Part shown: positions 1,852-20,000 of the stretch, in pieces
How positions within the stretch are numbered: the stretch's first letter is position 1
How the letters are laid out: the number at the start of each line of letters is the position of its first letter
NCBI GenBank assembly: GCA_040285745.1
Contig: JAUFOR010000007.1
Location: forward strand, 114,458 to 134,457
Length of the DNA stretch: 20,000 nucleotides
Direction: 5' to 3'
Source: Barthelona sp. PCE
Lineage: Eukaryota
Translations under genes and position numbers: made by a program
Notes under the pieces: generated by a model
The model's input: only the letters and a program-made list of their open reading frames with translations
What the model was told of the DNA's origin: nothing
Database searches by the model: none

Positions 1852-1945
1852 TGTATTTGCATTGAAAGAATATAGTTATTGAAAAGGCGCAAAAATTATA
1901 TAACAAAAAATTCTCAGAATCAACGTTTTCATTTAATGTTTGTGT

Positions 1946-3157: not shown

Positions 3158-3237
3158 TAAAAAAGTTGTTAATTGTGATGAACAAAAGAAAAAGTAGTAA
3201 ATCGATTACCAATAAATGATATTTACAAACGTAGTTC

Positions 3238-5703
3238 TCAAGCTCCAACAAAGCAGTCAATGAAGGAAACAACATCATGTTTGAAAGAAGGAAGCAGATC
3301 GAGTAAATTCAATACATAATCTCTGAAAAGAACAATTGTGTCGCGGATGTTTGAATTGTGAATGGTGTTGTACAGTTCGGAATCAACCTCACTGTAATTC
3401 TTATATTGCTTGAAAGCATCCAACAGCTCATTGTATTGCTCATCAGTTACACTGGCAAACTCCAAAATGTTTTTGTGAATGGTGTCCAGACTACGATCAT
3501 CAATATTAGCGTTCCAGATAGAGTCTGGACTGCGTGCAAACTTGCGCAACGAGAGCTCTTTGACAGAACAAGTACCAAACGCAAGGAAGGGAGCAAGAAT
3601 ATCACGTACAACCATGAAGTCCAGGTTTTCATCGTTAAACATAGTGGGACTAGCAAAGTAGTCTGTGTAACAGTGAGAGATAATATCACGTGCCTCAGTG
3701 GTTGTGAGCTTCTCGGTGCCCTTAAAGTCAAGCTCCAAACCAAAGTCGAAGGAGTAAATCTCCTTCATCGTTGCCATTGCTTCAGCCATAACGATCAAGA
3801 TAATACTGCTATCATGCGCGCGGTACACAAGATCGCGGACAAAGCCTTTCATGTCTGGGTTGTAACCTGATCTTTCATCGTAACCGATGAGCGATTCAAC
3901 ATCGGTAAGTACGAGGACTGCTCTGTCGCAACCAGTCGCCATGCTGAAATGTGCTGAGATCTTGGCCATTCGGTCGCGCGGGGCCTCCTGGCGATAATCC
4001 TTGCCATCGATGAGCTTCACAAAGTTTGGTCGCAGGTCCTTGAGAACCTTGAACATAAAGTTGCGGGCGTCTGTCCTGCGTGTGTCACCTGTGAGTAGGA
4101 TCGAAGCACCCTCATTGTAATCGAGCTGAACTGAGACGTACTCCTCGAACTGTTGTTTGTATGACGTGAGAAGATCAGAATATGGCTTGAACGTGACCTT
4201 ATCTGCCTCATCAAAGAACTTCTGGGCACCGTGTGTGGATGATACCAACTGTAATGCGTTTAACAGATGCTCTTGTCTTACCACGAACAAATCATCACCG
4301 TAATCCCTCTCCATTGATGCAGCTAGAGTACGTGCATCCTGGAACGCAAGCATCTGTGCCTGGGTACAAACAGAACGGATGTCTGCGCCTGAATAGTTGG
4401 GTGTTCTTCTCGCCATCTCAACCAGGTCGACGTCTTCAGCAAAGTAGGGAGTCAGTCTCTGTGAGTGAATTGCAAAAATGTTTTGACGCCCATTAAAGTC
4501 GGGGAGCGGAATCTCGAGCTGAATTTCGAAACGACCGGGTCTCAACAGAGCCTCATCGATGAGATCTCTTCTGTTTGTCATACCAATGACGATGAAGTTG
4601 TCGAACAGCTCAACACCCTCCATGATTGCCAACAACTGGTTGATGATACCGTCTGTGTTGGCGCCTGAACCTGACATGTTACGCTGTCGAGTGATGGCAT
4701 CAATCTCATCGAGTATAATGAGGTGGAGGTCTGCAAACTCTCCATTCTCATCAAAATCCTTCTTCGCTTCTGCAAACAGGTTACGGATATTCTCCTCAGC
4801 CTGACCAACGTATTTGTTGAGAATCTCGGTTGCCGCCTTAATGACGGGCTTACGCGTCTTGAGTATCTCACCAATAGTACGTGCCAGGAGGGTCTTTCCA
4901 TTACCAGGAGGACCGTACAGCAGGAGGCCGATGGGAGGGCGATACCGTTCATCCTTGAGAGAGGCAGGTGTCATTCGTGGGTATAGCAGGGATGTGATGA
5001 TTCGCTTAAACATGTTGTCCATGCCACCGATACCCTTCTGCTGAAGAATAGAGCCCATGTCGTCAACGATTTTCTGAATGTTTCGATTTTCTTTGAAGTT
5101 GACACCGTCAGAGCCATCGTACACGATAGTGCACTTTTCTACGTTGGAGGGGAGCCTGCCGATAGTTTCCTCGTGAATGCATTTCATTTCGCTTACAGTT
5201 GCTATCAAGTTGTTACCTTGGTACTGAAAAAGAATGTTTGACCCTAAATCAATTGGAGCACCATCCAGAGCTTCCAATACCGCTGCCTCGAATACCTCCA
5301 TGGTCTCCCTTGTGATAACAATGTTATCATGCTTCTTAGCAAGATGTGCAATTGTAAAAGTTACATTGCTGATGCGTCCGATTTGATCATCGGATACTGG
5401 TTCGAGAATCATGTTCTGTCCGTCGAGACTGCTTCCTCCACGAACACGAATTGTGATTCCCAATGAAGTACGTTGGGGACCGCTCATATAAACCTTTCCA
5501 TCAACACCCTCGCATACTTCAAACTTAAAAATGTGCTTATGCTCAGGTTTGTTAACGTTAGTGAGGAAACCAAAACCGTGCGGAGGTAAAATTCGTGTGG
5601 GATCGGAATTGACATACATACGATGTTTATATGCCAATGATGTGCTTGAATGAGTACCCACACCGTAAATGATGGGCGATGCTTCACTTTTTGGATCGGA
5701 CAT
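3238..5703 (-). CDS. NSF: Vesicle-fusing AAA+ ATPase NSF/Sec18, with a degenerate D2 module
   Basis: D1: GIGGMD, LLLYGPPGNGKTLLAR, EILNKYVGQAEENIRNLF, LHLIILDEIDAI, VIGMTNRRDLIDEALLRPGRFE, all NSF-type. Start set at the first ATG (5703, MSDPKS), with CCATTTCG 13 nt upstream; the ORF track used a TTG at 5781. Confidence 0.9.
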   Translation of the reverse strand: MSDPKSEASPIIYGVGTHSSTSLAYKHRMYVNSDPTRILPPHGFGFLTNVNKPEHKHIFKFEVCEGVDGKVYMSGPQRTSLGITIRVRGGSSLDGQNMILEPVSDDQIGRISNVTFTIAHLAKKHDNIVITRETMEVFEAAVLEALDGAPIDLGSNILFQYQGNNLIATVSEMKCIHEETIGRLPSNVEKCTIVYDGSDGVNFKENRNIQKIVDDMGSILQQKGIGGMDNMFKRIITSLLYPRMTPASLKDERYRPPIGLLLYGPPGNGKTLLARTIGEILKTRKPVIKAATEILNKYVGQAEENIRNLFAEAKKDFDENGEFADLHLIILDEIDAITRQRNMSGSGANTDGIINQLLAIMEGVELFDNFIVIGMTNRRDLIDEALLRPGRFEIQLEIPLPDFNGRQNIFAIHSQRLTPYFAEDVDLVEMARRTPNYSGADIRSVCTQAQMLAFQDARTLAASMERDYGDDLFVVRQEHLLNALQLVSSTHGAQKFFDEADKVTFKPYSDLLTSYKQQFEEYVSVQLDYNEGASILLTGDTRRTDARNFMFKVLKDLRPNFVKLIDGKDYRQEAPRDRMAKISAHFSMATGCDRAVLVLTDVESLIGYDERSGYNPDMKGFVRDLVYRAHDSSIILIVMAEAMATMKEIYSFDFGLELDFKGTEKLTTTEARDIISHCYTDYFASPTMFNDENLDFMVVRDILAPFLAFGTCSVKELSLRKFARSPDSIWNANIDDRSLDTIHKNILEFASVTDEQYNELLDAFKQYKNYSEVDSELYNTIHNSNIRDTIVLFRDYVLNLLDLLPSFKHDVVSFIDCFVGA

Positions 5704-5716
5704 TAAAAATGTGTAG

Positions 5717-5724
5717 CGAAATGG
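5717..5724 (-). promoter_or_regulatory. Initiator-like CCATTTCG
   Basis: 13 nt upstream of the NSF ATG, after a pyrimidine tract. Confidence 0.45.
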
Positions 5725-5893
5725 CAAAAGAAATGTTATACAAGCAGCTTGACGCTTCTGTTCTGGTTTTAGCAGCTTCAAGTTTCAGCTAGTCGTGTTG
5801 AGATACTTTAGAAAATTAAAAACAAAGGTTCTTGACCATAATTGTTGTAACATATTTTTCTTTGCATATCAGCCATATGTTTTAATTTAATTG

Positions 5894-7687
5894 ATGAATT
5901 TTACTCCAATGGTAGAGGACAGTGAAGGGGGCACACCAGGAGCGGCTACTAGCACTTTTCTCACAGATCTTATTATAGATAACGACGCAGAAGCTACAGA
6001 ATTTGAAATCCCAGAGATGAGGGATGGGGGAAACGCACCTTACATTGAACTCCCAGATGAAATTAGGCTTTTAGATGTAATACATAGTATTATTCATCAG
6101 CGACAGATTCAAGATCCATATATTTGTGGAATTCTTGTTACAGATCTTCTGTTGGAGTATTTTGCGTCGCTGTACTGGTTTTTTATGTTCGATGCGTTTG
6201 AGGACACATACATTGATGTACTATTAAACAAAAAGGAGTCTACAGCACACAGTCCGTTGCTGGAGTTACGCGTCAACGAACAATATACGCGCCAAAAGCG
6301 CATGATGAAGCGAAGCGTCCGTAACATAGGTATGCTCATGATGAGTGTCAGCGAGCTTTTATTAACGAGCGTTCGTCCTTTTGTACCAAAGGCGCTGGAC
6401 GTCATTGACTTCTCCCGTGTGTCAACTGCAAAACAGACAACGACACCTAAGGATGAGGAGAAGGAACCACGCAGCATAATACACACAGTGTTGCACAGTC
6501 ACCGCACACATCGTGTGATCCAGCAGCATAATATAATATTTAACAAGAACCACAAGCCCCCGATCACGTATGTAACTCGTTCAGTGAAGCGATTAGGATC
6601 GAAGGATATTCAGGTTATCTTCGACAACTTCTTTGCTCTCCTGCCGGATATCAGTGCAGAGGTTGTCTTTACCCTGCTTGTTATAGCGCACCCGTACCAA
6701 CGTGAGGCCTTGCAACAGCGCAGTTATGTTGTTACTTTACAGGAACAGCTGGGAGTTTTGTTAAGCGGTGTGAATAAGAGCGACAGTTATTATGAAAAAG
6801 CCATGGGGAGATGGAACAACGTCTTCCTCATCAACTTCTTCAAGAACTTTGATAAGCTGAATCTGATCAAAAACATGAAACACCGCATTGTAGAGAAGAA
6901 CATCCAAAAATTGTTAAAAAGGTTGAAAAGAAAGAAATTTAATCTACCCAATGAGCTAGAGGAGCTCAAAAATGAAATGCGAGGTATCAAAAACCGAAAG
7001 AAGAACTTCAAAAAAATCATGAACAATTTGAATGCAAAGGATTTCTATGAGTTGCGCAACGATAACGCTCTTGATACATATATGAAGGAGCGTTACGAGA
7101 ACATATCACGGTACATTGAGGACAGCGTGTCATTGAAACGGAATCAGCTCAGAAAGCTGAAAGTGTACAATCCAGAAGTTTCAACACGAGTACCCTCAAA
7201 GGAAACCCCAGTTCCAGTGGTGCCGACAATTAACCTTAAGAAGCTGAAGAAGGAACCAATTTTTGTGAGGAAAACAAATCGTTTCGATCTTAAAGGTACA
7301 ACCAGGCTTGTTGACGCTCTTCTGACAAACAGAAATGTGAAACGCAAGAAACCTTCTTCCGGTAAGGCTACCCGTATATTCTCTGCAGCTCCAAAGACCG
7401 AGCGTATTCAACGCGTGGAGAAAGGTTACAATAACACAGTTGTCCTAAACAATACACAACTGATACACAGGGACTATTCTTCGATAGCAGCTGCTCCTGA
7501 GTTGGATAAGGTGCGTAGTATAGTTACTAAATCAAAGAAGCGTGTGCAGACAGAGTTGAAGTTGCTCAGGAAAAGTACGGAAGAGCATTCAAAGGAGCTT
7601 AGTGATACGTTCAGCCGCATGACTTATATGGAAAGGAAGCAATTAGCAGACCAATTGGCGGGTTTTAGGCAACCGTTTGAGGAGTAA
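5894..7687 (+). CDS. FAM227-like (FWWh-domain-like) protein with a basic, coiled-coil C-terminal half
   Basis: Intact 597-aa ORF from ATG 5894. Segments IELPDEI, YFASLYWFFMF, KRMMKRSVRNIGMLMM, DNFFALLPDISAEVVFTLLVIAHP and LGVLLSGV occur in the order I recall for the FAM227 FWWh domain; recognised by eye only. Confidence 0.55.
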   Translation: MNFTPMVEDSEGGTPGAATSTFLTDLIIDNDAEATEFEIPEMRDGGNAPYIELPDEIRLLDVIHSIIHQRQIQDPYICGILVTDLLLEYFASLYWFFMFDAFEDTYIDVLLNKKESTAHSPLLELRVNEQYTRQKRMMKRSVRNIGMLMMSVSELLLTSVRPFVPKALDVIDFSRVSTAKQTTTPKDEEKEPRSIIHTVLHSHRTHRVIQQHNIIFNKNHKPPITYVTRSVKRLGSKDIQVIFDNFFALLPDISAEVVFTLLVIAHPYQREALQQRSYVVTLQEQLGVLLSGVNKSDSYYEKAMGRWNNVFLINFFKNFDKLNLIKNMKHRIVEKNIQKLLKRLKRKKFNLPNELEELKNEMRGIKNRKKNFKKIMNNLNAKDFYELRNDNALDTYMKERYENISRYIEDSVSLKRNQLRKLKVYNPEVSTRVPSKETPVPVVPTINLKKLKKEPIFVRKTNRFDLKGTTRLVDALLTNRNVKRKKPSSGKATRIFSAAPKTERIQRVEKGYNNTVVLNNTQLIHRDYSSIAAAPELDKVRSIVTKSKKRVQTELKLLRKSTEEHSKELSDTFSRMTYMERKQLADQLAGFRQPFEE

Positions 7688-7718
7688 ACAATATTTTCAC
7701 ATTTTTTTATTCTATGTT

Positions 7719-8576
7719 TTAGACCAGCTCCAAAACGCGTTCGTCAAGGTATTGTTTAATCTCGTGTGCCTCTGCGAACTTACCACTCCTGTATAAAGCC
7801 ACATACAAATTTTGCCAAATGGCAGGAGATCTTTCGCCAACAGTTACAAGTTTGCACACACGCTCTGCCTCTTCAGCGTCACCTATTGTGATGTACAATC
7901 CTGCACAAATCTCAACAAGAAGCATTGTGTTTTCGTATCTGAGCATTAGCGCATCAATATCCCTAATTGAATCAACCACCTTGGCGCTAGGGTCTTCCTT
8001 AAGGTGGACGTTGTGTAAGTTAAGGGACCCGGAATTGGAGCCCTGATAGTGAGGATGATTCGCAGCAACAAGGTTAATCATGGCAAGAAGAAGCTTGACA
8101 ATGGGGTTGAACTGAGCTCTAACGCTCTCTTCAACTTCGTCCAATATCTTGTAGGCCTTTGCAACCTGGCGCATCTGTAACAGAGATTGTACGGCATAAA
8201 AAACAACATCAATGATTGTGTTTGGGAAATCAGTTGCAATGTACAGTTCTAGTGCTTCGTTGAACCTACCAAGCTTTGTATATATGTACATGAGCGCGAT
8301 TTTATCCTGCAACGATTCCTGATTCTGAAGAAGGATGTTGAGCTTTTCAAGAGAAAATTCTAGCTCAATATCTGCAACGTAGTATACGCAGTCCTTATCA
8401 GACTCATATTTCTCAAGGTATTTCTCTGCCCCGTCCAGTTTTAACTCAGACCACTTCGAATAGAATAACAAATCTTCTGTTTCTTTAGCATTCTGTGCAA
8501 TATCCAAAGCAGATGCATAGTTTTGGAGGTAACAATAAGAGATAACGTCCCTCAGTTGGGTATCCTGGTAATCCAT
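7719..8576 (-). CDS. COPE: Coatomer subunit epsilon (COPI, Sec28), divergent
   Basis: 285-aa TPR-like helical protein. N-terminal QLRDVISYCYLQNYASAL, AVQSLLQMRQVAKAYKIL and RYENTMLLVEICAGLYITIGDAEEAE match the epsilon-COP pattern. Confidence 0.72.
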   Translation of the reverse strand: MDYQDTQLRDVISYCYLQNYASALDIAQNAKETEDLLFYSKWSELKLDGAEKYLEKYESDKDCVYYVADIELEFSLEKLNILLQNQESLQDKIALMYIYTKLGRFNEALELYIATDFPNTIIDVVFYAVQSLLQMRQVAKAYKILDEVEESVRAQFNPIVKLLLAMINLVAANHPHYQGSNSGSLNLHNVHLKEDPSAKVVDSIRDIDALMLRYENTMLLVEICAGLYITIGDAEEAERVCKLVTVGERSPAIWQNLYVALYRSGKFAEAHEIKQYLDERVLELV

Positions 8577-8582
8577 GCTTAA

Positions 8583-8590
8583 AGAGATGG
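8583..8590 (-). promoter_or_regulatory. Initiator-like CCATCTCT
   Basis: 6 nt upstream of the COPE ATG, after a T run. Confidence 0.4.
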
Positions 8591-8808
8591 GAAAAAAACT
8601 ATAACAACGTTTAAGCTGAATTTATCCGATAGTAAATTTCACAAACTGGCTTAATATACATGTAAGTTGAGATTTTTACCTTGAAAATACTAAAAACTCA
8701 ATATACTTCATGCCCTGCAGAAATTCTTTTCAAAGCTGTATGTGACATGCATGTGGGAGAATTGTGAGTTTTGTGGGGAAATTCAAATCCACAAAATTGT
8801 CATTCAAG

Positions 8809-8846
8809 GTATGTAATCGTTTCCTTTTTTTTTACTTTCTTCAAAG
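8809..8846 (+). other. Putative 38-nt spliceosomal intron in the NuoF 5' UTR
   Basis: CAAG|GTATGT donor, polypyrimidine tract and TTCAAAG| acceptor 1 nt before ATG 8848. An Inr-like TCATTCA (8800-8806) sits just before the donor. Confidence 0.55.
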
Positions 8847-8847
8847 A

Positions 8848-10137
8848 ATGCTTGAGAAATTCAAGGCGATTTTGAAGCCTTTTGGAGGGGCAGCGGTATC
8901 TTCCAGTAAGATTTTTGACAATCTGTATGGTGAGAAGAAAACGGATATTAAATCATCCATTAAACGTGGTGACTGGGTAGGTTTTGATGATCTTATCTCG
9001 CTTGAGCCTTCGACCATCATAGATGTGGTCAAAGACTCAGGAATTCGTGGACGTGGAGGAGCAGGGTTCTCAACAGGTTTAAAATGGTCTTTTATGCCTA
9101 AAGATGATGGAAAGAAACACTTTCTTGTTGTTAATGGTGATGAAGGTGAGCCAGGTACTTCAAAAGATAGATACATTATGTTGAATGAACCGCATAAGTT
9201 AGTTGAGGGTTGTGTTTTAGCAGGTCGCGCTCTTGGAGCAACTGAAGGTGTCATTTACATCCGTGGTGAGTTCATTGATGAGATGGCTTCTGTCCAAAAA
9301 GCTATTGATGAGTGTTACGACAAGGGTTTGCTGGGGAACATTCTGAACAAAGACAACTTCACTTTTGATCTCCGCATCCATCCTGGTGCCGGAGCTTATG
9401 TGTGTGGTGAAGAAACAGCTCTTATAGAGTCCATTGAGGGCAAACCAGGTCGTCCGCGCAACAAACCGCCGTATCCAGCTCAGGCAGGACTTTATGGGTT
9501 GCCCACAATGGTTAACAACGTTGAGACGATCTCATCAATCCCCACAATCTTAAGAAAGGGTTCAGATTGGTTCAGCGTCAAAGGTACCGAGAATTCTAAG
9601 GGAACGAAACTTTTCACCGTTTCTGGTGACGTGCACAAACCTTGTGTTGTTGAAGAGGATATGGGTATCGCCATGACAGAGCTCTTGAGTCTTGCGGGTG
9701 GCGTCGATGGAAAGCTTCAGGCTCTTCAACCTGGAGGTTCTTCTACAGGGTTCCTGTTACCTGAGGAAGTGAACACTGCACTTTGTGATTATGATTCGTT
9801 GTCATCTTATGGTTCTGCGCTTGGAACGGGAGCAACAATCGTGCTCAATGAAAAACGCGATATGATCGACTATCTTACTCGTCTTGCTCGCTTTTATGCA
9901 CATGAGAGCTGCGGTCAGTGTTTGCCTTGTCGAATGGGTATGCCCAGAATCTATGAGCTTATGAAGAAATTCAGCAGCAGAAGAGCCTCCAAAAAAGATT
10001 TAAGGGAGCTTGAAACATTGGTTAATCACATCCCGGGAAAGACAATATGCGCATTAGGTGAGGCTGGTTGCGAGCCCATTAGATCAGTCCTCGAAAAAAT
10101 GCCTCACTTATTCCATAGCATAATTGAAGTTTACTAA
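8848..10137 (+). CDS. nuoF: NADH dehydrogenase 51-kDa FMN/4Fe-4S subunit (NuoF/NDUFV1) with a short N-terminal leader
   Basis: SGIRGRGGAGFSTGLKWSF, NGDEGEPGTSKDR, GAGAYVCGEETALIESIEG and Fe-S ligands ESCGQCLPCRMG...TICALG. The first ATG is 8848; the ORF track's GTG extension reads through the putative intron. Confidence 0.95.
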   Translation: MLEKFKAILKPFGGAAVSSSKIFDNLYGEKKTDIKSSIKRGDWVGFDDLISLEPSTIIDVVKDSGIRGRGGAGFSTGLKWSFMPKDDGKKHFLVVNGDEGEPGTSKDRYIMLNEPHKLVEGCVLAGRALGATEGVIYIRGEFIDEMASVQKAIDECYDKGLLGNILNKDNFTFDLRIHPGAGAYVCGEETALIESIEGKPGRPRNKPPYPAQAGLYGLPTMVNNVETISSIPTILRKGSDWFSVKGTENSKGTKLFTVSGDVHKPCVVEEDMGIAMTELLSLAGGVDGKLQALQPGGSSTGFLLPEEVNTALCDYDSLSSYGSALGTGATIVLNEKRDMIDYLTRLARFYAHESCGQCLPCRMGMPRIYELMKKFSSRRASKKDLRELETLVNHIPGKTICALGEAGCEPIRSVLEKMPHLFHSIIEVY

Positions 10138-10224
10138 CAGTTATAGACTATCCCATCACACATCTTGTATGAAAACCTTCACATCATATTACATTGCAAT
10201 AAACATTGTATGTTAAGCTGAGAA

Positions 10225-10569
10225 TTATTCAACAACCTCCTCCTGTGTCTGATTTTCTTCTTCATCTACATCTTCTTCGTTACAGTGTTGCATGTAGGGG
10301 TTCTCGATCTCTGCGAAACCTTCTGCTGGCATGAGAGTGAGGATAGCGAGTGAACGAAGAATAGTTGTGTTAAGAGCAGTTCTAGTTTCGATTATTTCAC
10401 CGTCAATGATTTCGCTCTCAATCTTGTCGGTGTCTTTAAGTACACAATTCTGAATAGGATCGTAAGAAACAAGTTTTCCCTCTAACATGTCTCCATTTTT
10501 GAGATTTACGACAACTTTCTGTTGCATATAGGGTTCTAGATCGATGATATTCCTGGATATGGCTTGCAT
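10225..10569 (-). CDS. LSM7: Sm-like protein LSm7
   Basis: IIDLEPYMQQKVVV, Sm1 (EGKLVSYDPIQNCVL), Sm2 (ILRSLAILTL) and the LSm7-type C-terminal PAEGFAEIENPY. Confidence 0.8.
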   Translation of the reverse strand: MQAISRNIIDLEPYMQQKVVVNLKNGDMLEGKLVSYDPIQNCVLKDTDKIESEIIDGEIIETRTALNTTILRSLAILTLMPAEGFAEIENPYMQHCNEEDVDEEENQTQEEVVE

Positions 10570-10584
10570 TTGTTATTTAGGAAA

Positions 10585-10592
10585 TGAAATGG
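10585..10592 (-). promoter_or_regulatory. Initiator-like CCATTTCA
   Basis: 15 nt upstream of the LSm7 ATG. Confidence 0.5.
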
Positions 10593-10654
10593 GATGGAAA
10601 TTTCTAAACAAAAATTTTGTGATGAAAAAGCATTTAAAAATTAAAATTAGCTAT

Positions 10655-11857
10655 TTATTCGTGCTTCTGGCAGCATGCCTTGGCCTTTTCACAACACCTA
10701 AAAGAGCAATCATCAAAGTTTAATGTTACACCTTCTTGCAGTTGAACAAACTCGGGTTGTAGAGTCGTTGAGTGAACCCCCACATCGTGAAGCATCCTCT
10801 TCGCAACAGTGGCAACGCTATTCCAATCAGCTGAATCAACAACTGTAACATGTGCAGAGCATACTATTGTGGAACGCACAAGACTCCAAATGTGCAAATC
10901 GTGCACTCCAACAATATCAGGAATCTCCATCAACTTCTCCTTGATCTTCTTAGAATCGATGCTAGTGGGAGTGCTCTGCAACAGGATAGCAATCGCCTTC
11001 TTCACCATTGGTGTTGCTGAGAAAACCATAAAAATCGCAATCATAAGCGAAGCGATGGGATCGGCAAGGTGTTTGTACTTCCAGTCTGTCCAATAGATGA
11101 TAGCACCAGAAATAAGCACTGCGATAGAACCCAGTAGATCACCTATGATGTGAAGCAAAGCACCCATGGCGTTCAGGTCAACGTCATCCTTGTTCTTCTC
11201 ACTATTACCGTGGTCATGGTTACACTTTTCTCCGTGTCCATGACTGTGAGAGTGTCCACCGTGACTGTGATCGCAGTCCTGATGAATTTCCCCGTGGAAG
11301 AGCTTAATTCCAATTATATTAATGAAAAGGCCAATGGTGGCCACAGTCATGAGTGGGATACCAACCTCAGTACCGTGCTCGTCACCTCCCAATATCTTTT
11401 CAAAGCTCTCCAACGTAATGAAGAATGACAGTGTGAGCATGACGACACCGTTGCACAGGCCACCAATGACTTCCCCTCTTTGAAATCCGTATGTGTTTGA
11501 ACTGCTTCTTGGTCGAAGAGATATTTTCTTAAAACTGAGTGCAAGAATAAGTGCACTGAAATCAAGAAGCATATGCATTGCATCACTGATCAGAGCAAGT
11601 GAGCTGAATATGTAACCTGCCAGTAGCTCAACGACAAAGAATAATCCTGTCAAATACACCATCGTTATGTACGCTACGCTAGATCCTTTTTCAGGACTTT
11701 TGCTGTGCTTGTGGTCGTGGTCGTGGCCACAACATGCTGATTCATGACCGTTACATGTTTCTTCAACATCATGATTACAACTATGTACTTCATGTTCTTC
11801 ATTTGACTCTGCTGAACCTACTGAACCTTCGTCGAAGTCCTTCACAACCAAAGACAT
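10655..11857 (-). CDS. Cation diffusion facilitator zinc transporter (SLC30/ZnT, Zrc1/Cot1-like)
   Basis: SLALISDAMHMLLD (TM2 HxxxD), TYGFQRGE, His-rich loop, LHIIGDLLGS (TM5 HxxxD), ADPIAS, VHDLHIWSL and HSTTLQPE. Confidence 0.93.
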   Translation of the reverse strand: MSLVVKDFDEGSVGSAESNEEHEVHSCNHDVEETCNGHESACCGHDHDHKHSKSPEKGSSVAYITMVYLTGLFFVVELLAGYIFSSLALISDAMHMLLDFSALILALSFKKISLRPRSSSNTYGFQRGEVIGGLCNGVVMLTLSFFITLESFEKILGGDEHGTEVGIPLMTVATIGLFINIIGIKLFHGEIHQDCDHSHGGHSHSHGHGEKCNHDHGNSEKNKDDVDLNAMGALLHIIGDLLGSIAVLISGAIIYWTDWKYKHLADPIASLMIAIFMVFSATPMVKKAIAILLQSTPTSIDSKKIKEKLMEIPDIVGVHDLHIWSLVRSTIVCSAHVTVVDSADWNSVATVAKRMLHDVGVHSTTLQPEFVQLQEGVTLNFDDCSFRCCEKAKACCQKHE

Positions 11858-11871
11858 TGCTGAAATATCAA

Positions 11872-11879
11872 TGAAATGG
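11872..11879 (-). promoter_or_regulatory. Initiator-like CCATTTCA
   Basis: 14 nt upstream of the ZnT ATG, after a T run. Confidence 0.5.
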
Positions 11880-12139
11880 AGAAAAAACTATAAAACGAGA
11901 TTCCTTATGTTGACCAATGTATATTCTTGGTACAACAACATTTTTTGACAGCCCCTCATGTTGCTAAAATGTGTTGAAAATGAAATAAACTCTTCTTTTG
12001 TCACCCTGCAAAAAGTTCATCTTAATTGGAAAACTTTTTGCTTGACCTATGTTTACATAGGTCATTTTGTTCCCTGTCTGACGCGCTTTGTGGTAAGAAA
12101 CCATTGTAATACAATTTTGTAATATGCTTTAGATTTTTA

Positions 12140-12146
12140 CCATTCA
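12140..12146 (+). promoter_or_regulatory. Initiator-like CCATTCA
   Basis: 8 nt upstream of ATG 12155, after a T run. Confidence 0.45.
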
Positions 12147-12154
12147 CACTCAAT

Positions 12155-13501
12155 ATGCCTCGGCCGATCAGGCAAAGGGGGTTTGGATTTGTTATTTCTG
12201 GTCAAAATTTGTCGGAAAGGATCTTAGAAGGCAGTAGTGTAGCTTTTAATCCACTTAATGTTGATATATGTCATAATTTTGGAGCTGCTGACCATTATTC
12301 TTTGGGTATATGTGTGTCTATGGATTGCTACTATCTCATGCAGTTCAATCGCGCAGAGCAACTGCACAAGTTTACTTTCTTTTCCTTTGGATATCCAGAC
12401 TACAATGTTAAAATACTAAATACTGTTGTGTTTGACTTTGGAAAGAACTCAGATGAACTTTATCATGATTTTATTGTTATCAATGATGAGCTTGTTGTGC
12501 TTAGGAAACATGATCACAATATTGATCCTTTCAATATTCAGTACAATCAAGCGTATGTTTTTGGTCCAGAAGGGTATTTGTTTGGTGTTGGAATTAGGCA
12601 CAGATTGCTGGGCATTTGTGGCAGATTTGTTTTTGTAGTTGAGAGAAGCAATATTTTGGTTTTGGAAATGATCAACGGTTGGAATCAGAGTGATGTTGAA
12701 ACTTTGTACCAAATTGAAGCGAAGAGCAGAACTTTCTATTCTTCTATTTCAAGGATGTTTGCAACATATGACGATCTGAACGACACTTGGTTGATAGCTT
12801 TTATTGGTGATGATCCAAGCGCCAAACCGAAATGGGAGAGTTTAACGGACTATATACCTGGAGGATACATTCCTGAATTTAGTTATCGTTTTGACTTTTT
12901 GCTGAGGTCATCAGAAGGGGTAATTGTGATATTTAACAAAGAATCAAAAGTTGACTTGGTGTTGAATATGAATAATGAAATCTCAACGTTTGTTGTACAT
13001 GTTCCCCATAACCACATTATGTTTGGGAATTCAAGGTCAGTATTGGATTTTTGGAATGATATCAGAATGATGTCAATTTCTGGCAGCAATTTGGTGTTAA
13101 AAAAAGGTTTCATTCCGATTTCCAGCATTCAAATTGATCTGAGCCAACCTGAATCATGTTTCGTGCAGTATATTGGATCTATGGCAATTTTTCAAACAGA
13201 AAACTTGATTTTTGTTGATTTTTCGAGCCATATCATCCACTACGTGCCTTTAAACGGGCGCAGCTGGCAGAGACTTAATGATGGATACTTGTGTCTTTTC
13301 TCAGAATGTGCCGTTTGTATTTTACACTGTGGGAGAAATCTCACATTAACAGCTTGTATTTCACACCCTGAAGAGTATGGTGTACCTGTGGGAATTGCAC
13401 ACGGTGTGCTGATTTTTTTGGAAACAGTAGTAAATAGTTTATTAATTTTCGAGCAAGCTGTCCCGGATTCTCGTATGTACTGTTCCTTGGTCTTCTGCTA
13501 A
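12155..13501 (+). CDS. Hypothetical beta-strand-rich protein; the last ~29 codons may derive from the antisense 3' end of the retroelement
   Basis: Uninterrupted 448-aa ORF with CCATTCA 8 nt before the ATG; no family motif recognised. Confidence 0.7.
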   Translation: MPRPIRQRGFGFVISGQNLSERILEGSSVAFNPLNVDICHNFGAADHYSLGICVSMDCYYLMQFNRAEQLHKFTFFSFGYPDYNVKILNTVVFDFGKNSDELYHDFIVINDELVVLRKHDHNIDPFNIQYNQAYVFGPEGYLFGVGIRHRLLGICGRFVFVVERSNILVLEMINGWNQSDVETLYQIEAKSRTFYSSISRMFATYDDLNDTWLIAFIGDDPSAKPKWESLTDYIPGGYIPEFSYRFDFLLRSSEGVIVIFNKESKVDLVLNMNNEISTFVVHVPHNHIMFGNSRSVLDFWNDIRMMSISGSNLVLKKGFIPISSIQIDLSQPESCFVQYIGSMAIFQTENLIFVDFSSHIIHYVPLNGRSWQRLNDGYLCLFSECAVCILHCGRNLTLTACISHPEEYGVPVGIAHGVLIFLETVVNSLLIFEQAVPDSRMYCSLVFC

Positions 13502-13519
13502 CTGTTAGTATCAGACTCT

Positions 13520-14230
13520 ACGCCTGCTCCTTGCTGCCCTCATAATGTTCTTCATAGCATAAGCGTGAAAAGCAAATAGATGGTAGCTAAGACCTTTTTA
13601 AGTTTCGTTCCACTGGTCTTAATTGATTGCGACGTTGATCTCTCGTTCAACGACTCGAGCACCTGTTCCCCACGACGTGTAAGCTAGCTCGAAATTGTAT
13701 TTCTCGTGCCTTCGACGTCGGTTCCCACAACATCGGATCCCAAATGTAAAACCCTCCGTGCGCAACGGCCATAATCTTGACCGGCGGGTCATCAAAGTTT
13801 TGTACTTATTTAGCTTCTTGTAAAATAGGCTGCACGTACGTGACCTCGATCTTTGCTCGTGAACGGCGATGTAGTCATAACATCCACCACAACCTTGGGT
13901 CCGCTTGCTTCCAGTATTGCAAAATCTGGTCGCTTACGTTCTTTCCGATTGGGATTTTGACTCACCACTTTCGTACCGTTCATGTGTCCAACCCAATTGT
14001 ACACGATGTATGTCACTGTACTCCTCAAACTTTCTTTTAGGAATTGGCTTATCCAAGTTGAAAATATGAGCATTTCCTGATTTTCGAACAGTATCAACTG
14101 TTTTTCTCAAGAATGTTGTTGTGCAGTTTGACGACAAGACCGTGATTTTTTTTTTGAACAAGAATAATGATGACTTCTTCTGTCTAAAAACCTTCTCTCC
14201 ACAGAGTTGCACCGCCCAGAGGCGTACATT
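13520..14230 (-). pseudogene. CCHC zinc knuckle plus PD-(D/E)xK restriction-like endonuclease of the retroelement, frameshifted
   Basis: Reconstructable CQLCGEKVLDRRSHHYSC...LHNNI, then RKRPDFAILEASGPKVVVDVMTTSPF, KKLNKY and a terminal helix LSYHLFAFHAYAM. Confidence 0.8.
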
Positions 14231-15249
14231 TCGCGAAGTTCAGGAACAACAATTGGTATATACCGGCTAAAAGCATAACCAAACATGTAACGCTCATCAA
14301 ACATTGAATGAATATTGGCAACTGACCTTTGGGGCCATGTGGCGACGGTAGCATCGAGTGACCAGGCAACAGAACGCTGAGACATCAAGGCGTCTCGGGA
14401 TATAAATGATTCTGGATGGAAACGACAATGTTTGATCGCATAATCAAACAATTCGAAAAAAAACGTTTTTGTGAGAATGTTTTGTAGTTTGCTTTTTGAC
14501 GCACAATATTAGTAGCCATACTGATCTCAACATCGTACGACTCCATCTGAGTGTGCTGCCCATAGTTTACGGCAAGCCACAGTAAATTTGAAGCAAATTC
14601 ATGCTTTGTTTCTGTTAAGAGAAACTGCTTCCACAAGTTTGTGTTGGCAATCCTCATCTTGGTAATGAGCATCCGGCATAAAGTAGGGTTTGTTATCTTT
14701 GTCATAGTTGAATCACCGTATGCCAAATAACGTGGGCTAAGCCTAGTGAAATCCGACCACTCAATCAAAATTGAAACGCTTGATTGAGCTACTTACCGAA
14801 GCGGTACTTGCCAAGTCAGCTATTTTGTGGAGGAACACAAACAAAGACAACCAGTCCCACCAAGAGACAAAAGGATAACGGAGAGTTGGAGCTTCATCGA
14901 TCGATAACTCATCGGCTCCAGGAATCATCTCAAGAAGTAAATTCTGTTTGATGGTCCTTTCCATATCATCAACTGCATCTTCAGTGAGAGTCACCGAGCG
15001 TACGTGATGAATGAGCATCTGATCAATCGACATAGAAGCAAGATACTTGAACAAAAGCTGTCCCTGGACTTATATACTCGAAGTTGTTTGACGCCATTGC
15101 TAAATCACGCATGCATGACTAACATTAAAGTCGCCAATCTGAGTACCTAACAATTGATAAAAAAGCTAAGCTTAAGTTGTGGGTAGCGATGTTCTCTTGC
15201 TCTTCACCTCTTGGAAATATCCCGAAGCGAAAAGCAATACTCGGCTCCA

Positions 15250-16305
15250 TACCCCACCAGCTCACTTCTCAGCATTCACTTTTCAGGTTATAGAACTCGA
15301 GCTTACCCTTGATTACATCAAAGGTTGACATGACAGTTGATGGTTCACCAACAATATAAATATCGTCAGCATACGCGTACATATTGACTGAATCTGGGGC
15401 TACGGCTTTCGTATCCTTCAAACACTTCAGCAATAAGAAGAGCAAACAACAACGGAGACGTTGCGTTACCCCTGTAACACGCCCATACAACTATCAAAGG
15501 CGCTCTCCATTCGACCAAATCGGAATTGGCCTTTTTTGCACATCTGATGATATGCTTGGAAGCACCAAGGGAGCATGTGCAGCGACAATATGCAGCAGCT
15601 TGTCACGACGAACGCTGTTGAAGGCGTTAGCAATGTCAATAACAAGAGCAACATTACGATCACTTCGCTTTAGATTGACATCCAACGAGGTTTGCGACCA
15701 GAGCAGTAGCATCCCGCATCCAGCACCGAATTGTTTGTGTTTAAACAAATTACTTTTTTGACACGTTCCAGAAACTTCAGATCTTGACTCGCGATGATCT
15801 TATCAGCGATACCGAGTGCAGAGGCAACTGCGATGGGGCGTACAGGCATATGCTCACCCTCTTGAAGCTCCTCCACATGCTTTTTTGTTAAGAGAACAAT
15901 TAGTCGGATATTCCAAAGGGCCCACGGGCGCGATCCGAACGCATAATCATTGATGGCAACTTGAGTAAAAGCATCCATGTAGCGATCGTTACGATAGATT
16001 TCAGCCACAAATAACTTAAGTAAATATGGCATCACTCCATCGGCACCGGCAGAAATGTACTTTTTGACTTTTTTGGTGGTCTCATACACCATATCTTTCG
16101 ATATTATGAATTCCTCAGGGTCCCACTCACCTCTCTTGAAAGAACTCATGGTTTCGCGCAGAATCGCATCAGAAACTGGTGCACTGACTGGATGCTTTGA
16201 TTGCATCTGTTCCAGCACGTTAGTATCTGATAAAGGCATGGTACCTTGACTCTTTGCTAGCCTTATGGCCTTTCCTGGTTGGTTGGCGTCTGCGTACTTC
16301 TTCAT
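15250..16305 (-). pseudogene. Reverse transcriptase domain of the retroelement, split over several frames
   Basis: Fragments MQSKHP, SAGADG, VRPIAVASA, KQFGAG, ALVIDIANAFNSVRRD, GVLQG/NATSPLLFALL (after removing one G from the G4 run at 15469-15472) and MYAYADDIYIVG. Confidence 0.9.
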
Positions 16306-18379
16306 ACGAAGGCTTACAGACTCCCCTAGACTCTCAACGGATGGCTGATTGGAACGTTGCCTCGGCGTCTTACCAAAACATAGCGCAGAAGCTGCAACTA
16401 TTAGAGCCCTCGCCTATACATCGTTGAGACTCACGTAATGGAGTATTCCATATTAACAAACCAATCTTCAGGACACAGAAATATAGCTTTCTTGATTTCT
16501 TATCACCAATTAAATTATCTTGGTTCTCGATAACTTTCTGAAAAACAAACTCATTAAAACTTCTAGAGCATCGTCTTTGTCTAGGTCTGGTCGTAAAGAA
16601 TGTAGAGCCAGGACCCCGGACAATTGTTGACAAACTCCTTGATTCTCACAAGTGTTTCAATATTACCGCTCTGCCACTGAGGCAATCGCGGTGGATTAGC
16701 GCAATAAGCGCCCAGAAGTTCTCAAAGAAATCTTCAGCAACTCTTCTCTCAGCAATTTCTGCTTATTACCGTCAGTTGCACAAAGTCGATTGAATCGGAC
16801 CAGCGGGTCGTGGTACAGTAAAATGGGGAAAGTGTATTCCATACGAGAACTTGAAACTGGGTATGTAACATTGCTCATAATGGGAGGAGCTTGGTTGGTA
16901 ACACTGCTCGTAACAGGAATTGAAGGCGTCGGGTTAGTATCTACCGGGTCAACATCAATGTATGTGACTGTGACTGGTTCCGGTTAACCAATGCTGGCGC
17001 TCCAACTTCTTGGAAGACAGAATCATGCGATTCTGGATCACTTTCACCTTAAAAAAAATATGACTGAGTAGAGGAATCATTCTACTACTAAAAATGGGAA
17101 GAGCTCGGTACAAGTTTCTCTACTTCCATTAAATTCCAAACAGGCCTTGATAAACGCAAACATCACGAAATAGAAATTATCCGTGAACGGTTCTACATTC
17201 TGCCAATGATAAACATTCTGGCCACGCGGAGTCCATTCTGAATTTCATACAAAGACACACTTCTAACGAAATTGATTGCTGCCGGATGTAAAATCCTGCA
17301 ACGCTCATCTTCCTTTTTCCTCAGAAGCGACACTCCTTATAGTGTCATCCAAATGTGAATCTCTCGTCTCCAAACTTCTCATTGATAGCATGTACAATCT
17401 CGTTTGCATCAACGCCAGTGCTGCATACTTTCAGGATAGCATGTGCAATAACGAGTTGTCCTCGTGTACCTGGGCTTGAAAGACGGCCACCAACGGTTTC
17501 CATCTTCTCACCTTCAATACTGCGTAAAGACAACCAATCTGCGTCAGTGCACAAGCCCTCCACTGATCATGAACATTTTGTCGAATTATTTCTATGGACG
17601 GGGCTCTCCTGTTGTTTTGAAGAAACTTTCGTCCTTTGAATTATTGACAACATCTGCTCACCGAACTCTGTTAGTTGGTACTTGACATCTTCCTTAAGAT
17701 ACATAAGTGTTTGCAAAAGGACTATGTGGCGTAGTAACAATTGGATTGGCTAACATTGTTTTCGATATCCTCATATACCCTCTCTATTTCTGGATTGGTA
17801 CATAAGCTGCAGGAGGTCCTAGATACTTCTTGCTCTTCATACAAATAATAATCATCATCATCAGTCCCACTCTGGAAGCGGGGAAGGTAAATATACAGTA
17901 TCTGAAAATGTATCTGATAATGTGTTGTGAAGGAGAAAGGGTCACAAGGTTGAGCTGTGACTGTCGGTAGAGATATTCTACCACACTACTTGTCAGTTTA
18001 GCGACAGAACACGACACAGTTTAAAACGCACGAAACCATGAAAATAAGCGCGTCATGGCATGCATATAATGATAACACACAGTGTCGTGAGGGGGACAGC
18101 TTGGGCCCGTGTGCGGGGCATAATGATCAGATAGTGATGTTAAAAATCGTGAACTCCATAAGCTACCTACAAAATCATATCTTTGGAAAAATAAATTCTG
18201 AAGTTTGCAGTAGGCACACTCTGAGTGTAAGAGCTTGTGGACAAGTATCTTGACAAAACCGGCATAACGTGACCTTAAATTTACAAAGTCTTCATCTACC
18301 TTACGCAGGCATATGGGCTCAAATGGCGTATATTGGTGAGTCATGAGGCGTGGGGCGCCCCAGAGGACCTATTACCTCG

Positions 18380-19762
18380 GAATCATCAGAAAAATAGCGG
18401 CGAAACGGCTTGAAATTGATTGAAAATTGTAAAAGCGAGATGGCATGATTATAAAGATGTCTCATGCCCGCAGGGGGACCCATGGGATAAAACACTCTAA
18501 CAAAGCTTGACGTAGTGTCTTGCCATGGCTGAAATCTGCTGTAAAACAACAAAATCCCGCATCATGCATCTGCAACAAAAATTCCCTGCTTGAATACGTC
18601 GAAAGCGCCTCTTGAGGAGGGCCAGGACATGGAAATAGCGAAAAAACCATCACTGTAGAAGTTTTGGAATTTGAATTTTGTTCAAAGTTGTTTGGGCGTT
18701 TCTGTGCTTGTAAAAGCGCGTCTACGCACCCGATACATGCTGATCTGCTGGGTCTAACCCCTTTAGAATCGTTCTGCATCACAACTAAAAAACGTTTTCT
18801 TCATATTCACTATTTGTGCCCATTTTTTCGTATTCAGCGATCGTAACGACACCAAAACGACGTCCTCCGAGTTTGAAATAGCTGCACTTCCATCACAACA
18901 CGAGTCTTTTTTTTCTCAAACTAACACCATTTTCGGCGTTTCCAGTAGTCTGAACGGGTTCAGGGGCCTTCTACGCGTGTTCCATGTATCCCATCAGGTC
19001 TAAAACCTTCTTGGTCCATATTCTGCAAATAGTCTCGTTTATGATCAAATAATATGACAGGCGTGCGATTTTCATGTTACTGCTCGTCGAGAAAAAATGG
19101 CGGCGCAACTGAAATTGATTGAAATTGTAAAGCGAGATGGCATGATCTCAAAGTCTCATGCCGCAGAGGACCATGGGATCAAACACTAACAAAGCTTGAC
19201 GTAATGGTAATCTTGCCGTAAAACAGAAATCATAGCAACAAGCAACAAAATCCCACATCTGGCATCACAACAAAAATTCCTGCTTGAATACGTCGAAAGC
19301 GCGCCTCTTGAGGAGGGCCGATGTAGAACCATCACTGAAAGTTTTGGAATTTGTTCAAAGATTGTTTGGGCGTTTCTGTGCTTGTAAAGCGCTCTACACC
19401 TGCTCTGCTTTGATCGCGGGTCCTTTAAGATGAATTCTGCATCACAACTAAAAACGTGCCTTCTGCCACTGTTGCCCGGTACTTTACAACATTCAGCGAT
19501 CAACGACACCAAACGACGTCCTCCGAGTTTGAAATAGCTGCACTTTGTCACAACACACAGGTCTTTTTTTTCTCCAAAACTAACTGTTTTAAATTTCCGG
19601 TAGTCTGGTGGGTTCAGGGCTGCACTACGCGTGTTCCGCCCAACATCCCATCTACGCTTCTTGGTGCGCTTATTCTTACCGATAGTCTGATCCAAATAAC
19701 TGCCGCGATAGACGTTGATTTTCATGGCCTGCTGCTCCAGGATCATCCAGATAAAACGGCGA
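18380..19762. repeat. Direct tandem repeat: two copies (~700 and ~660 bp) plus the start of a third
   Basis: Unit starts at 18389 (GAAAAATAGCGGCG), 19091 (GAAAAAATGGCGGCG) and 19750 (GATAAAACGGCG). Shared blocks in the same order include AGCGAGATGGCATGAT, CTAACAAAGCTTGACGTA, CTGCTTGAATACGTCGAAAGCGC, GCCTCTTGAGGAGGGCC and ACGACGTCCTCCGAGTTTGAAATAGCTGCACTT. Confidence 0.95.
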
Positions 19763-19788
19763 GCTGGTTAACGGTGCAAAGGGTCCAC

Positions 19789-19985
19789 CATGGTCTTCGC
19801 CAAATTCTGCTGGTCTCACTGGTCGCCGGTCATGGTCTATGGTCTACCGCCGATCGCTGGTCTATGGTCTGCTTGGTCTTATGGGATACCATGGTCTATG
19901 GTCTCTGTGCGGATACACCTTTGGCGGTCTGCTGGTCTATAGTACCATGATTCCTGTGGTCTGCTGGTCCTGGGTCTGGTGCTAT
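19789..19985 (+). repeat. Degenerate short repeat tract, core TGGTC, apparent unit TGGTCTA; telomere-like
   Basis: 13 exact TGGTC copies in 19791-19969, with 7-nt-spaced pairs at 19833/19840, 19858/19865 and 19892/19899. Confidence 0.8.
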
Positions 19986-20000
19986 GATACTAGCAATGCA

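Follow-up and report, generated by a model that had tools for sequence, protein, structure and literature searches.

A full-length LINE copy beside a degenerate telomere-repeat-like tract in Barthelona sp. PCE

The stretch of DNA analyzed here (20,000 nt; the window) carries a full-length, inward-pointing copy of a non-LTR retrotransposon, followed on its 5′ side by two copies of a ∼0.7-kb unit and by a degenerate tract resembling the telomere repeat of the organism. We tentatively read this arrangement as a copy of a new, array-forming LINE with a restriction-like endonuclease (RLE) beside the decayed relic of a telomere, and give this reading somewhat less than an even chance of being right. 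The window belongs to a contig of 134,457 bp in the assembly of Barthelona sp. PCE (10.2 Mb, 8 contigs; PMC11316075, the genome paper), the smallest genome reported for a free-living eukaryote, only 4.46% of which is repeats (PMC11316075). A word search of the genome paper found retrotransposons nowhere mentioned, and a literature search returned no paper pairing barthelonids with retrotransposons; the element family is previously undescribed.

Nine host ORFs (114–847 aa) span positions 268–13,501, and six of them clearly contain Pfam families (Tdp1, Cns1/TTC4 Wheel, AAA, NuoF 51K, cation efflux, and LSM). The first-pass annotation had gene-dense host DNA stop at ∼13.4 kb with no host gene on the far side, which holds: the last of the nine ORFs ends at 13,501, and none is recognizable 3′ of that position up to base 20,000, the limit of the sequence examined. 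This last host ORF (12,155–13,501, plus strand; 448 aa, annotated as P0162), delimited from the ORF list, the mapping of the element boundary, and reading of the sequence, is an orphan, a search of the protein collection having returned only P0162 itself and Pfam having given no match. Its last ∼25 codons (13,425–13,498) are antisense of the 3′ end of the element and thus come from it, so the original 3′ end and stop codon of the gene are missing or displaced.

The element body (13,425–18,371, minus strand; 4,947 bp, with the 3′ end at ∼13,425 and the 5′ leader reaching up to 18,371) was delimited by homology mapping, read contigs, and gene models. The 1472-aa model P0002 mapped by tblastn from 18,121 down to ∼13,700 on the minus strand, and other models extended to 13,514; contigs of runs X1 and X2 begin at 13,431 and 13,440, respectively, and continue to 19,086. 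P0001 and P0008 represent this very locus as exact spliced models. The deposited sequence of the element contains many frame switches, which may be assembly errors. As the first-pass annotation had it, the 3′ end is joined to host DNA and the repeats and G/T-rich tract lie off the 5′ end, as the tblastn mapping confirms, and no target-site duplication was found (no word of ≥9 letters from the 80 nt to the left of the element recurs in 18,300–20,000). Poly(A) was not found at the 3′ terminus (∼13,425). Presumably, the element would copy itself like other RLE LINEs, by target-primed reverse transcription, in which a DNA 3′-OH would prime cDNA synthesis starting at the 3′ end of the RNA; such a mechanism would account for the direct junction between its exact 3′ terminus and host DNA, which lies here inside the 3′ end of the last host ORF.

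Among the features of R2-type architecture are a CCHC motif at the C-terminus and, after it, a PD...(D/E)xK-type nuclease. At the level of motifs and profiles, the element is an RLE-type non-LTR retrotransposon with R2-like architecture, and the inward-pointing RLE-type LINE proposed earlier is thereby supported, with reverse transcriptase (RT) and, at the C-terminus, CCHC/RLE encoded on the minus strand of 13,425–18,371. The RT core (15,256–15,784, minus strand) was mapped from the Pfam domain RVT_1 of family models (E 6.9e-19 in P0002, residues 774–950; E 1.8e-19 in P0005). Both the YADD motif (frame 15,269–15,490, minus strand) and the RPD...DV motif were found in the window's own reading frames. 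Motif search, alignment, and profile comparison placed a CCHC knuckle and a putative restriction-like endonuclease (RPD-13 residues-DV, then K..KY) at 13,885–14,212 (minus strand). Because RVT_1 was the sole Pfam domain in P0002 and P0003 at E values up to 0.1, an AP (exo-endo-phosphatase) endonuclease is absent.

The strict pattern CCHC...[RK]P[DE]...D[VI].. was present in all four family models checked. In a comparison set of 69 records (P0014–P0082; 68 from other organisms and the Barthelona fragment P0068), more than 350 aa follow YxDD in 42/69, and the loose and strict CCHC/nuclease patterns were found in 20/69 and 4/69, respectively. Residues C546, C549, H559, C563, H574, and D653 were invariant in an 18-sequence alignment of the element and 17 hand-picked relatives, 13 of which had been chosen because they bear the pattern. 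A profile including the element and relatives matched solved R2 proteins from RT through the C-terminus (E 4e-48) and L1 ORF2p in RT only (E 7e-22), and the Barthelona C-terminus (P0159) matched a relatives-only profile with an hhalign probability of 74.9% (E 2.6e-5). When PDB was searched with the element sequence alone, no R2 was returned, only marginal retron and group II RT matches (E 0.04–0.5), and the AlphaFold model (pLDDT 37.5) was too low in confidence for checking the endonuclease fold. Outside Barthelona, relatives were found by the RT core only (∼30–35% identity), the best named ones being unnamed models of Closterium, Eukaryota sp. TZLM1-RC, and Cafeteria. With R2 and other RLE LINEs (CRE/SLACS/CZAR, NeSL, R4, Hero, and Utopia), the element shares a single long ORF encoding RT and then CCHC plus a PD-(D/E)xK-type endonuclease, the lack of AP endonuclease and poly(A), and a recurrent junction with one repeated sequence; it differs from R2-type LINEs in the N-terminal zinc finger or Myb domain, neither of which was recognized here by Pfam.

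Beyond the 5′ end of the element, the first-pass annotation had described ∼680-bp tandem repeats. Direct repeats of ∼0.7 kb do exist, but there are only two copies, 71–74% identical, and a ∼50-nt stub, and a relative and the read contigs both give 711 bp as the length of the unit. Copy 1 (18,372–19,076, minus strand; 705 bp here) was recognized by self-comparison, from family models, and from a 741-nt read contig placed on 18,376–19,086 with wrap-around loose ends; on the plus strand, it opens with a ∼29-nt segment also present between the unit and the next element in arrays elsewhere. Copy 2 (19,077–19,726, minus strand; ∼650 bp), delimited by self-comparison and alignments, is rich in indels, with 38–71 indel events relative to copy 1 versus 54–125 substitutions, depending on the scoring scheme, and with deletions in excess. 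The annotated 186-aa ORF P0163 (19,189–19,746) lies inside copy 2 and has no in-frame homology to the reading frame of the unit. The stub (19,727–19,775, minus strand), discerned by eye, corresponds to the opening ∼50 nt of a third unit and follows on from the end of copy 2 without a shift of register; it is weak alone, its local alignment being no better than chance.

The unit is probably a part of the element (a 5′ or N-terminal module) and not a host satellite, because it is open in the element's frame, a coding status that rests on gene models whose exon structure is not visible. P0154 begins within the unit and continues in frame into the element ORF, and P0006 terminates in unit sequence. 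Contigs from two runs join the element body to the unit, which also wraps onto itself, and the same unit/element junctions recur in P0161, P0154, P0006, and the read contigs; the 3′ end of the window copy instead joins the host ORF. In arrays elsewhere, exactly one unit plus the ∼29-nt repeated segment lies between head-to-tail element copies. P0161 (2834 aa) consists of element, 329 aa, and element again, that is, two head-to-tail copies in one frame, and contains two identical 9-aa marks spaced by 237 aa (711 nt). The family appears to be array-forming and young. In the window, a young-looking element lies inward of old-looking units, an order that fits neither simple terminal addition nor simple single insertion.

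The excess of indels in copy 2 fits a long-read consensus of raw quality, typical of a contig end; the apparent decay of copy 2 and the tract could then stem from sequencing errors, with a true unit and telomere underneath. More generally, the whole right edge (19,077–20,000) might be the poor consensus of a collapsed or thinly covered repeat, in which case neither the diverged unit nor the degenerate tract would be real, and what truly lies here may be a more extended array of units or elements, whether or not it includes a telomere. The assembly was indeed made with ABruijn from Albacore-called R9.5 reads and underwent polishing, first by Nanopolish and afterwards with short reads (PMC11316075, section 17), deletions prevail in copy 2 over copy 1, and the element differs from short-read-type contigs by 44 other letters and 112 gaps (X1) or 54 and 124 (X2), a dominance of indels as in unpolished repeats. 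However, a difference of 26–29% exceeds the usual consensus error, the host genes of the same window are intact, and the short reads (308x; PMC11316075) should have polished unique, diverged sequence. We consider such an artefact quite unlikely.

Further copies of the element are found across the genome. The RT fragment 15,670–16,413 (minus strand) matches five Barthelona sp. PCE proteins at 84–97% identity, and 18 gene models on 5/8 contigs belong to the family: eight on the 2.17-Mb contig, with locus tags spread over 726 numbers, and four on the 2.13-Mb contig, with tags spread over 455, tags giving position only roughly (6 tags separate two models that lie 379 bp from each other). By this measure, copies are not confined to chromosome ends; the family is dispersed, without dedication to them. 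The first-pass annotation had itself named copies dispersed in random orientation with target-site duplications as evidence against a chromosome end; because the family is dispersed, that objection applies in part.

The published Barthelona telomere repeat is 5′-TATATGGTCT-3′, an unusual 10-nt unit, and a telomere is present at one end of only 2/8 contigs, or at 2/16 contig ends (PMC11316075). The tract at 19,790–19,985 (plus strand), delimited by motif counts and alignment to this repeat, contains 11 copies of its core, TGGTCT. In the 20 kb, the core occurs 17 times on the plus strand, 11 of them in 19,791–19,957, and four times on the minus strand, none of them in that stretch; the strand is that expected for a right-hand chromosome end. 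With two or fewer mismatches, TGGTCTATGGTCTA occurs three times versus 0.12 expected, a count reached by 0/200 shuffles. Local alignment of the tract to a TATATGGTCT array scored 71 (mean 17, maximum 30 in 200 shuffles; 43 for the highest-scoring 225-nt piece elsewhere in the window), identity to the ideal array being ∼60%. To judge from these comparisons, the tract is related to the telomere repeat of the organism. The (TGGTCTA)n array of the first-pass annotation survives as a TGGTCT-rich stretch on one strand but not as a tandem array: Tandem Repeats Finder reported nothing at default settings and only 2.9 copies of a 7-mer (19,828–19,846) at a minimum score of 30. Exact TATATGGTCT copies are absent from the tract, start-to-start distances of TGGTCT range from 7 to 34 nt and are never 10, and regularity does not increase toward base 20,000.

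Irregular core spacing (7–34 nt), three TGGTCTATGGTCT dimers lying 25 and 34 nt apart in the tract, the missing canonical repeat, and the dispersed family would all suit an ordinary internal insertion beside a minisatellite, telomere-like by chance or through a shared simple motif, at a site that never was a chromosome end and beyond which genes resume after 20 kb. This is improbable, however, given an alignment score far above those of shuffles and of every other piece of the window, the location of all cores on one strand, and the resemblance to so unusual a core as that of the organism's own 10-nt telomere repeat, which would be an unlikely coincidence.

Could the locus be a live chromosome end, with a canonical (TATATGGTCT)n array beginning no more than a few kb past base 20,000, the element and units terminal-most, as GilM/GilT are, and the tract as the variant-repeat inner edge of the telomere? 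The tract is significantly telomere-like, has the strand that such an end requires, and extends to within 15 nt of the right edge of the window; next to it, only a stub of the outermost unit is left, as would be expected if telomerase had capped an eroded 5′ end; telomeres do exist on 2/16 contig ends; and the indel-rich 19.1–20.0 kb resembles a thinly covered contig end. Against this stand the lack of any exact repeat in 200 bp and of a trend to regularity, the dispersed family, and the full 20-kb length of the window within a contig of 134,457 bp, which makes it unlikely that its end coincides by chance with that of the contig and favors the relic. One reading of the locus tags even puts the window at the start of the contig, a reading unsupported elsewhere. 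We regard a live end as unlikely. Of the retrotransposon-capped chromosome end proposed in the first-pass annotation, the telomere-like tract on the right strand and the inward 3′ end stand, whereas the canonical repeat is missing and the family is dispersed.

In the preferred reading, a telomere relic, the outer DNA (the diverged second unit, the unit stub, and ∼200 bp of decayed repeat) would be what is left of a chromosome end, the tract would be an interstitial or subterminal telomere remnant and not a live telomere, and the DNA would be expected to go on past base 20,000. Against the relic, a live end would have exactly this polarity (3′ end inward, G/T strand outward), and the telomere-like alignment reaches 19,985, so the tract may simply continue. 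Like interstitial telomeric sequences, or fossil telomeres, the tract is a short, decayed, one-stranded, telomere-derived block beside mobile-element DNA; it differs from other such blocks in its unusual 10-nt unit.

The overall layout recalls GilM/GilT (Genie 1) of Giardia, like Barthelona a metamonad. These elements share with that of Barthelona the C-terminal endonuclease, one-direction head-to-tail arrays, and a similar size (5,474 bp for GilM, PMC7000408, versus the 4,947-bp body and 711-bp unit). According to a review (PMC5537684), they lie in Giardia between subtelomere and telomere repeats, the outer copies being 5′-truncated. In contrast, the repeated module of Barthelona sits 5′ of the element body and is open in the element's frame, that of Giardia being described as belonging to a long 3′ UTR; poly(A) is absent; and the family occupies at least 5/8 contigs, whereas GilM/GilT are confined to ends. 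GilM is likened here by description. HeT-A/TART/TAHRE of Drosophila belong to the Jockey clade, have an AP endonuclease or none, and replace telomerase repeats. They form head-to-tail arrays with the 3′ end centromere-ward (PMC5537684). The Barthelona element, too, forms head-to-tail arrays, and in this one copy, judged relative to the telomere-like tract, the 3′ end points centromere-ward and the 5′ end toward the tract. Unlike them, Barthelona has a telomerase-type repeat, an element with an RLE, and copies away from ends.

The family adds a putative RLE of the early-branching LINE type, and it exposes an annotation problem: at least 18 "hypothetical proteins" are pieces of the element, one host gene model (P0162) ends in element antisense, and one "gene" (P0163) sits in the repeat unit. 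Should the pairing of LINE and telomere-like tract recur at other ends, a sister lineage would be shown to share the Giardia-type arrangement of LINE and telomere, and there would be a handle on the upkeep of an unusual 10-nt telomere. It is conceivable, if rather doubtful, that barthelonid chromosome ends are Giardia-like, with arrays of an RLE-type LINE and its ∼0.7-kb module, 3′ end inward, lying outward of the last genes and inward of the telomerase repeats and helping to heal broken or eroded ends. Were this so, the end in the window would have broken within a gene, LINE arrays associated with telomeres would be older than the split between Fornicata and the barthelonid/skoliomonad clade, and they would occur together with a telomere repeat that is among the oddest known.

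According to its description (PMC11316075), the Barthelona sp. PCE genome comprises 10.2 Mb in eight contigs, with 5,064 proteins and 4.46% repeats, and was assembled from Nanopore reads with ABruijn and polished with Nanopolish and short reads. Nine host ORFs fill window positions 268–13,501, among them those for Tdp1, a Cns1/TTC4-like protein, an AAA ATPase, NuoF, an LSm protein, and a cation-efflux transporter; a LINE on the minus strand (from 13,425 outward), direct repeats, and a TGGTCT-rich tail follow. The anatomy proposed in the first-pass annotation is real, but its details had to be corrected. The NuoF gene (complex I 51-kD subunit, with FMN and 4Fe-4S domains) is intact at 8,764–10,137, in an anaerobic host whose mitochondrion-related organelle is reduced. 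The final 25 codons of the last host ORF, the annotated orphan P0162 (12,155–13,501, plus strand), are the antisense of the element's 3′ end, so that the true 3′ end of the gene is either absent or displaced and does not lie within the window. In the protein collection, this ORF (12,155–13,498) matched itself only, and it belongs to no Pfam family. The window copy proves that the 3′ terminus of the element can join unrelated host DNA, and this junction is presumably the signature of target-primed reverse transcription, not of segmental duplication. As had been claimed before, no target-site duplication was found around the element upon re-examination. No tRNAs were found, and Rfam returned zero matches (E up to 1) for 13,000–20,000; no HDV-like ribozyme was, thus, detected there.

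The reading frame of the window's element copy switches many times. The protein P0002 (1472 aa) aligns between 18,121 and about 13,700, with further models extending to 13,514; the frame carrying the reverse transcriptase (RT; 15,670–16,413, minus strand) is matched by five Barthelona sp. PCE proteins with 84–97% identity. Two annotated hypothetical proteins, P0008 (PCE1_003211; 13,937–14,385, minus strand) and P0001 (PCE1_003217; 14,764–17,080, minus strand), are exact spliced readings of the window, that is, of a single frameshifted element copy; both are on the 134,457-bp contig. They lie 379 bp apart but six steps apart in locus tag and accession, which indicates that locus tags in the Barthelona record are not strictly positional.

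Pfam recognized RVT_1 in the element and nothing else. Outside Barthelona, 1,852 proteins (E up to 1e-3) were matched by the RT core alone, all with their best match at query residues about 40–250 and with roughly 30–35% identity; those with named organisms were unnamed models from Closterium, the skoliomonad “Eukaryota sp. TZLM1-RC”, and Cafeteria. The C-terminus of the element contains a CCHC knuckle, RPD followed after 13 residues by DV, and K..KY. Many of the relatives terminate in such a CCHC/RPxD/DV arrangement: among 69 records inspected, the tail was long enough in 42, and a loose form of the pattern was present in 20 of the 69. When the Barthelona protein P0005 was aligned with 17 relatives of our own choice, six C-terminal columns were invariant. 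The profile of this alignment matched solved R2 proteins from the RT through to the C-terminus (E 4e-48), whereas L1 ORF2p was matched in the RT only (E 7e-22); P0005 on its own retrieved just marginal retron and group II RT matches from the PDB. The Barthelona C-terminal fragment P0159 aligned to a profile of the relatives only with a probability of 74.9%, and its AlphaFold model (pLDDT 37.5) was too low in confidence for a fold search. Based on the C-terminal motif, the invariant columns, the R2 profile match, and the relatives-only alignment, the element is filed as a LINE of the restriction-like endonuclease (RLE) type, which bears out this part of the first-pass assignment.

Read contigs of three runs (X1–X3) from one study were compared with the window; none from X3 was placed on it, and blanks and depth carry no evidential weight. 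No contig covered 12,000–13,430 (except for a 36-nt scrap) or 19,209–20,000. Compared with the short-read–type contigs, the window element differed by 112 gaps versus 44 other letters (X1) and by 124 gaps versus 54 other letters (X2). Within the deposited 13,431–19,086, the differences were dominated by gaps of 1–4 nt, several of them in homopolymer runs. Loose letters of X1 at 17,197 resemble the start of a sequencing adapter, which we take to be adapter read-through, not biology. The gap-rich pattern is what an unpolished or thinly covered long-read consensus would look like, as at a contig end, and suggests that repeats of the Barthelona assembly escaped short-read polishing. Because gaps dominate the differences, the frameshifts of the element may not be real. 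An assembly artefact at the right edge of the window (19,077–20,000) is considered improbable.

The ∼680-bp repeats claimed outward of the element are indeed direct repeats, but there are just two copies of ∼0.7 kb (18,372–19,076 and 19,077–19,726; 71–74% identity), with deletions in excess in the second relative to the first, and a stub of ∼50 nt of a third, in register after copy 2, which was placed by eye and is not significant alone. The gene model P0161 (PCE1_003952, 2834 aa) runs through one element, 329 residues, and a second element, all in one frame (residues 1380–1713; 987 nt between the tandem elements). Two identical 9-residue marks in it are 237 residues, that is, 711 nt, apart; between tandem copies there is, thus, exactly one unit together with a repeated segment of ∼29 nt. 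No stop interrupts the sense frame of the element anywhere in the spacer, the 711-bp unit included; for the unit, such an open frame is improbable by chance. Moreover, P0154 starts within the unit and continues in frame into the element ORF, P0006 terminates in unit sequence, and read contigs from X1 and X2, both public, start at 13,431 and 13,440 and span the element to 19,086, their loose ends joining unit to unit. The element itself most likely includes the unit, as a 5′ or N-terminal module; alternatively, the unit would be a tandem target that is struck at a single site, with ∼29 bp being duplicated. In the ESM Atlas, no usable match was obtained for the portion of P0154 that the unit encodes. 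Of 10 small ORFs looked up exactly in the protein collection, only 19,189–19,746 (minus strand) was present, as the annotated P0163 (186 aa). It lies wholly within the diverged copy 2 and is probably a spurious gene model, as it shows neither a Pfam family nor in-frame homology to the reading frame of the unit. For the end ORF (19,755–20,000, plus strand), no word-sharing protein was found among those of 45–144 aa.

The last ∼200 nt of the window are not the (TGGTCTA)n array they had been taken for. The telomere repeat given for Barthelona is 5′-TATATGGTCT-3′ (PMC11316075); elsewhere in the literature, this sequence occurred, among the matches listed, only in unrelated contexts (primers and the like). 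Aligned to an ideal TATATGGTCT array, the tract scored 71 over 19,790–19,985 (134 matches in 225 columns), compared with a mean of 17.2 (SD 4.3, maximum 30) for 200 shuffles and with 43 for the highest-scoring 225-nt piece elsewhere in the window. It contains 11 of the 17 plus-strand TGGTCT of the window and none of the four on the minus strand, and an unrelated minisatellite, accordingly, has very little probability. The tail (19,746–20,000) resembled neither the unit nor the element's 3′ end better than shuffles did. The earlier interpretation as a chromosome end is partly supported: a telomere-like tract on the expected strand, the polarity of the element, and the truncated outer unit speak for it. 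Against it, the tract contains no canonical repeat (TGGTCT starts are never 10 bases apart) and becomes no more regular as base 20,000 is approached, the window is a complete 20-kb piece of a 134-kb contig, and the element family is dispersed: its 18 gene models are distributed over the 2.13-Mb (4), 2.17-Mb (8), 1.33-Mb (3), and 0.77-Mb (1) contigs and the 134,457-bp contig of the window (2). A live telomere just beyond the window is considered unlikely, even if the apparent decay of the tract may, given the gap-dominated differences, be partly error. The best reading, to which we hold tentatively, is that the element belongs to a new family of RLE LINEs that forms arrays, and that this copy lies next to the decayed relic of a telomere.

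Lexicographic locus-tag numbering (per-contig gene numbers), with the window at the contig start, would fit both the six-tag gap and the nine host genes, given a 104-gene contig starting at the window; on three other contigs, however, it yielded no joint solution and at most one chance adjacency, and it was kept as a weak hint only. The closest known system to the Barthelona arrangement is GilM/GilT of Giardia. P0009 (PCE1_004386, 74 aa), on the 1,334,541-bp contig, corresponds to the very C-terminus of the element. If the tags of that contig are 004386–005064 (679 genes, which fits the gene density of the genome), P0009 is its first gene, and a second Barthelona contig would begin in the element.
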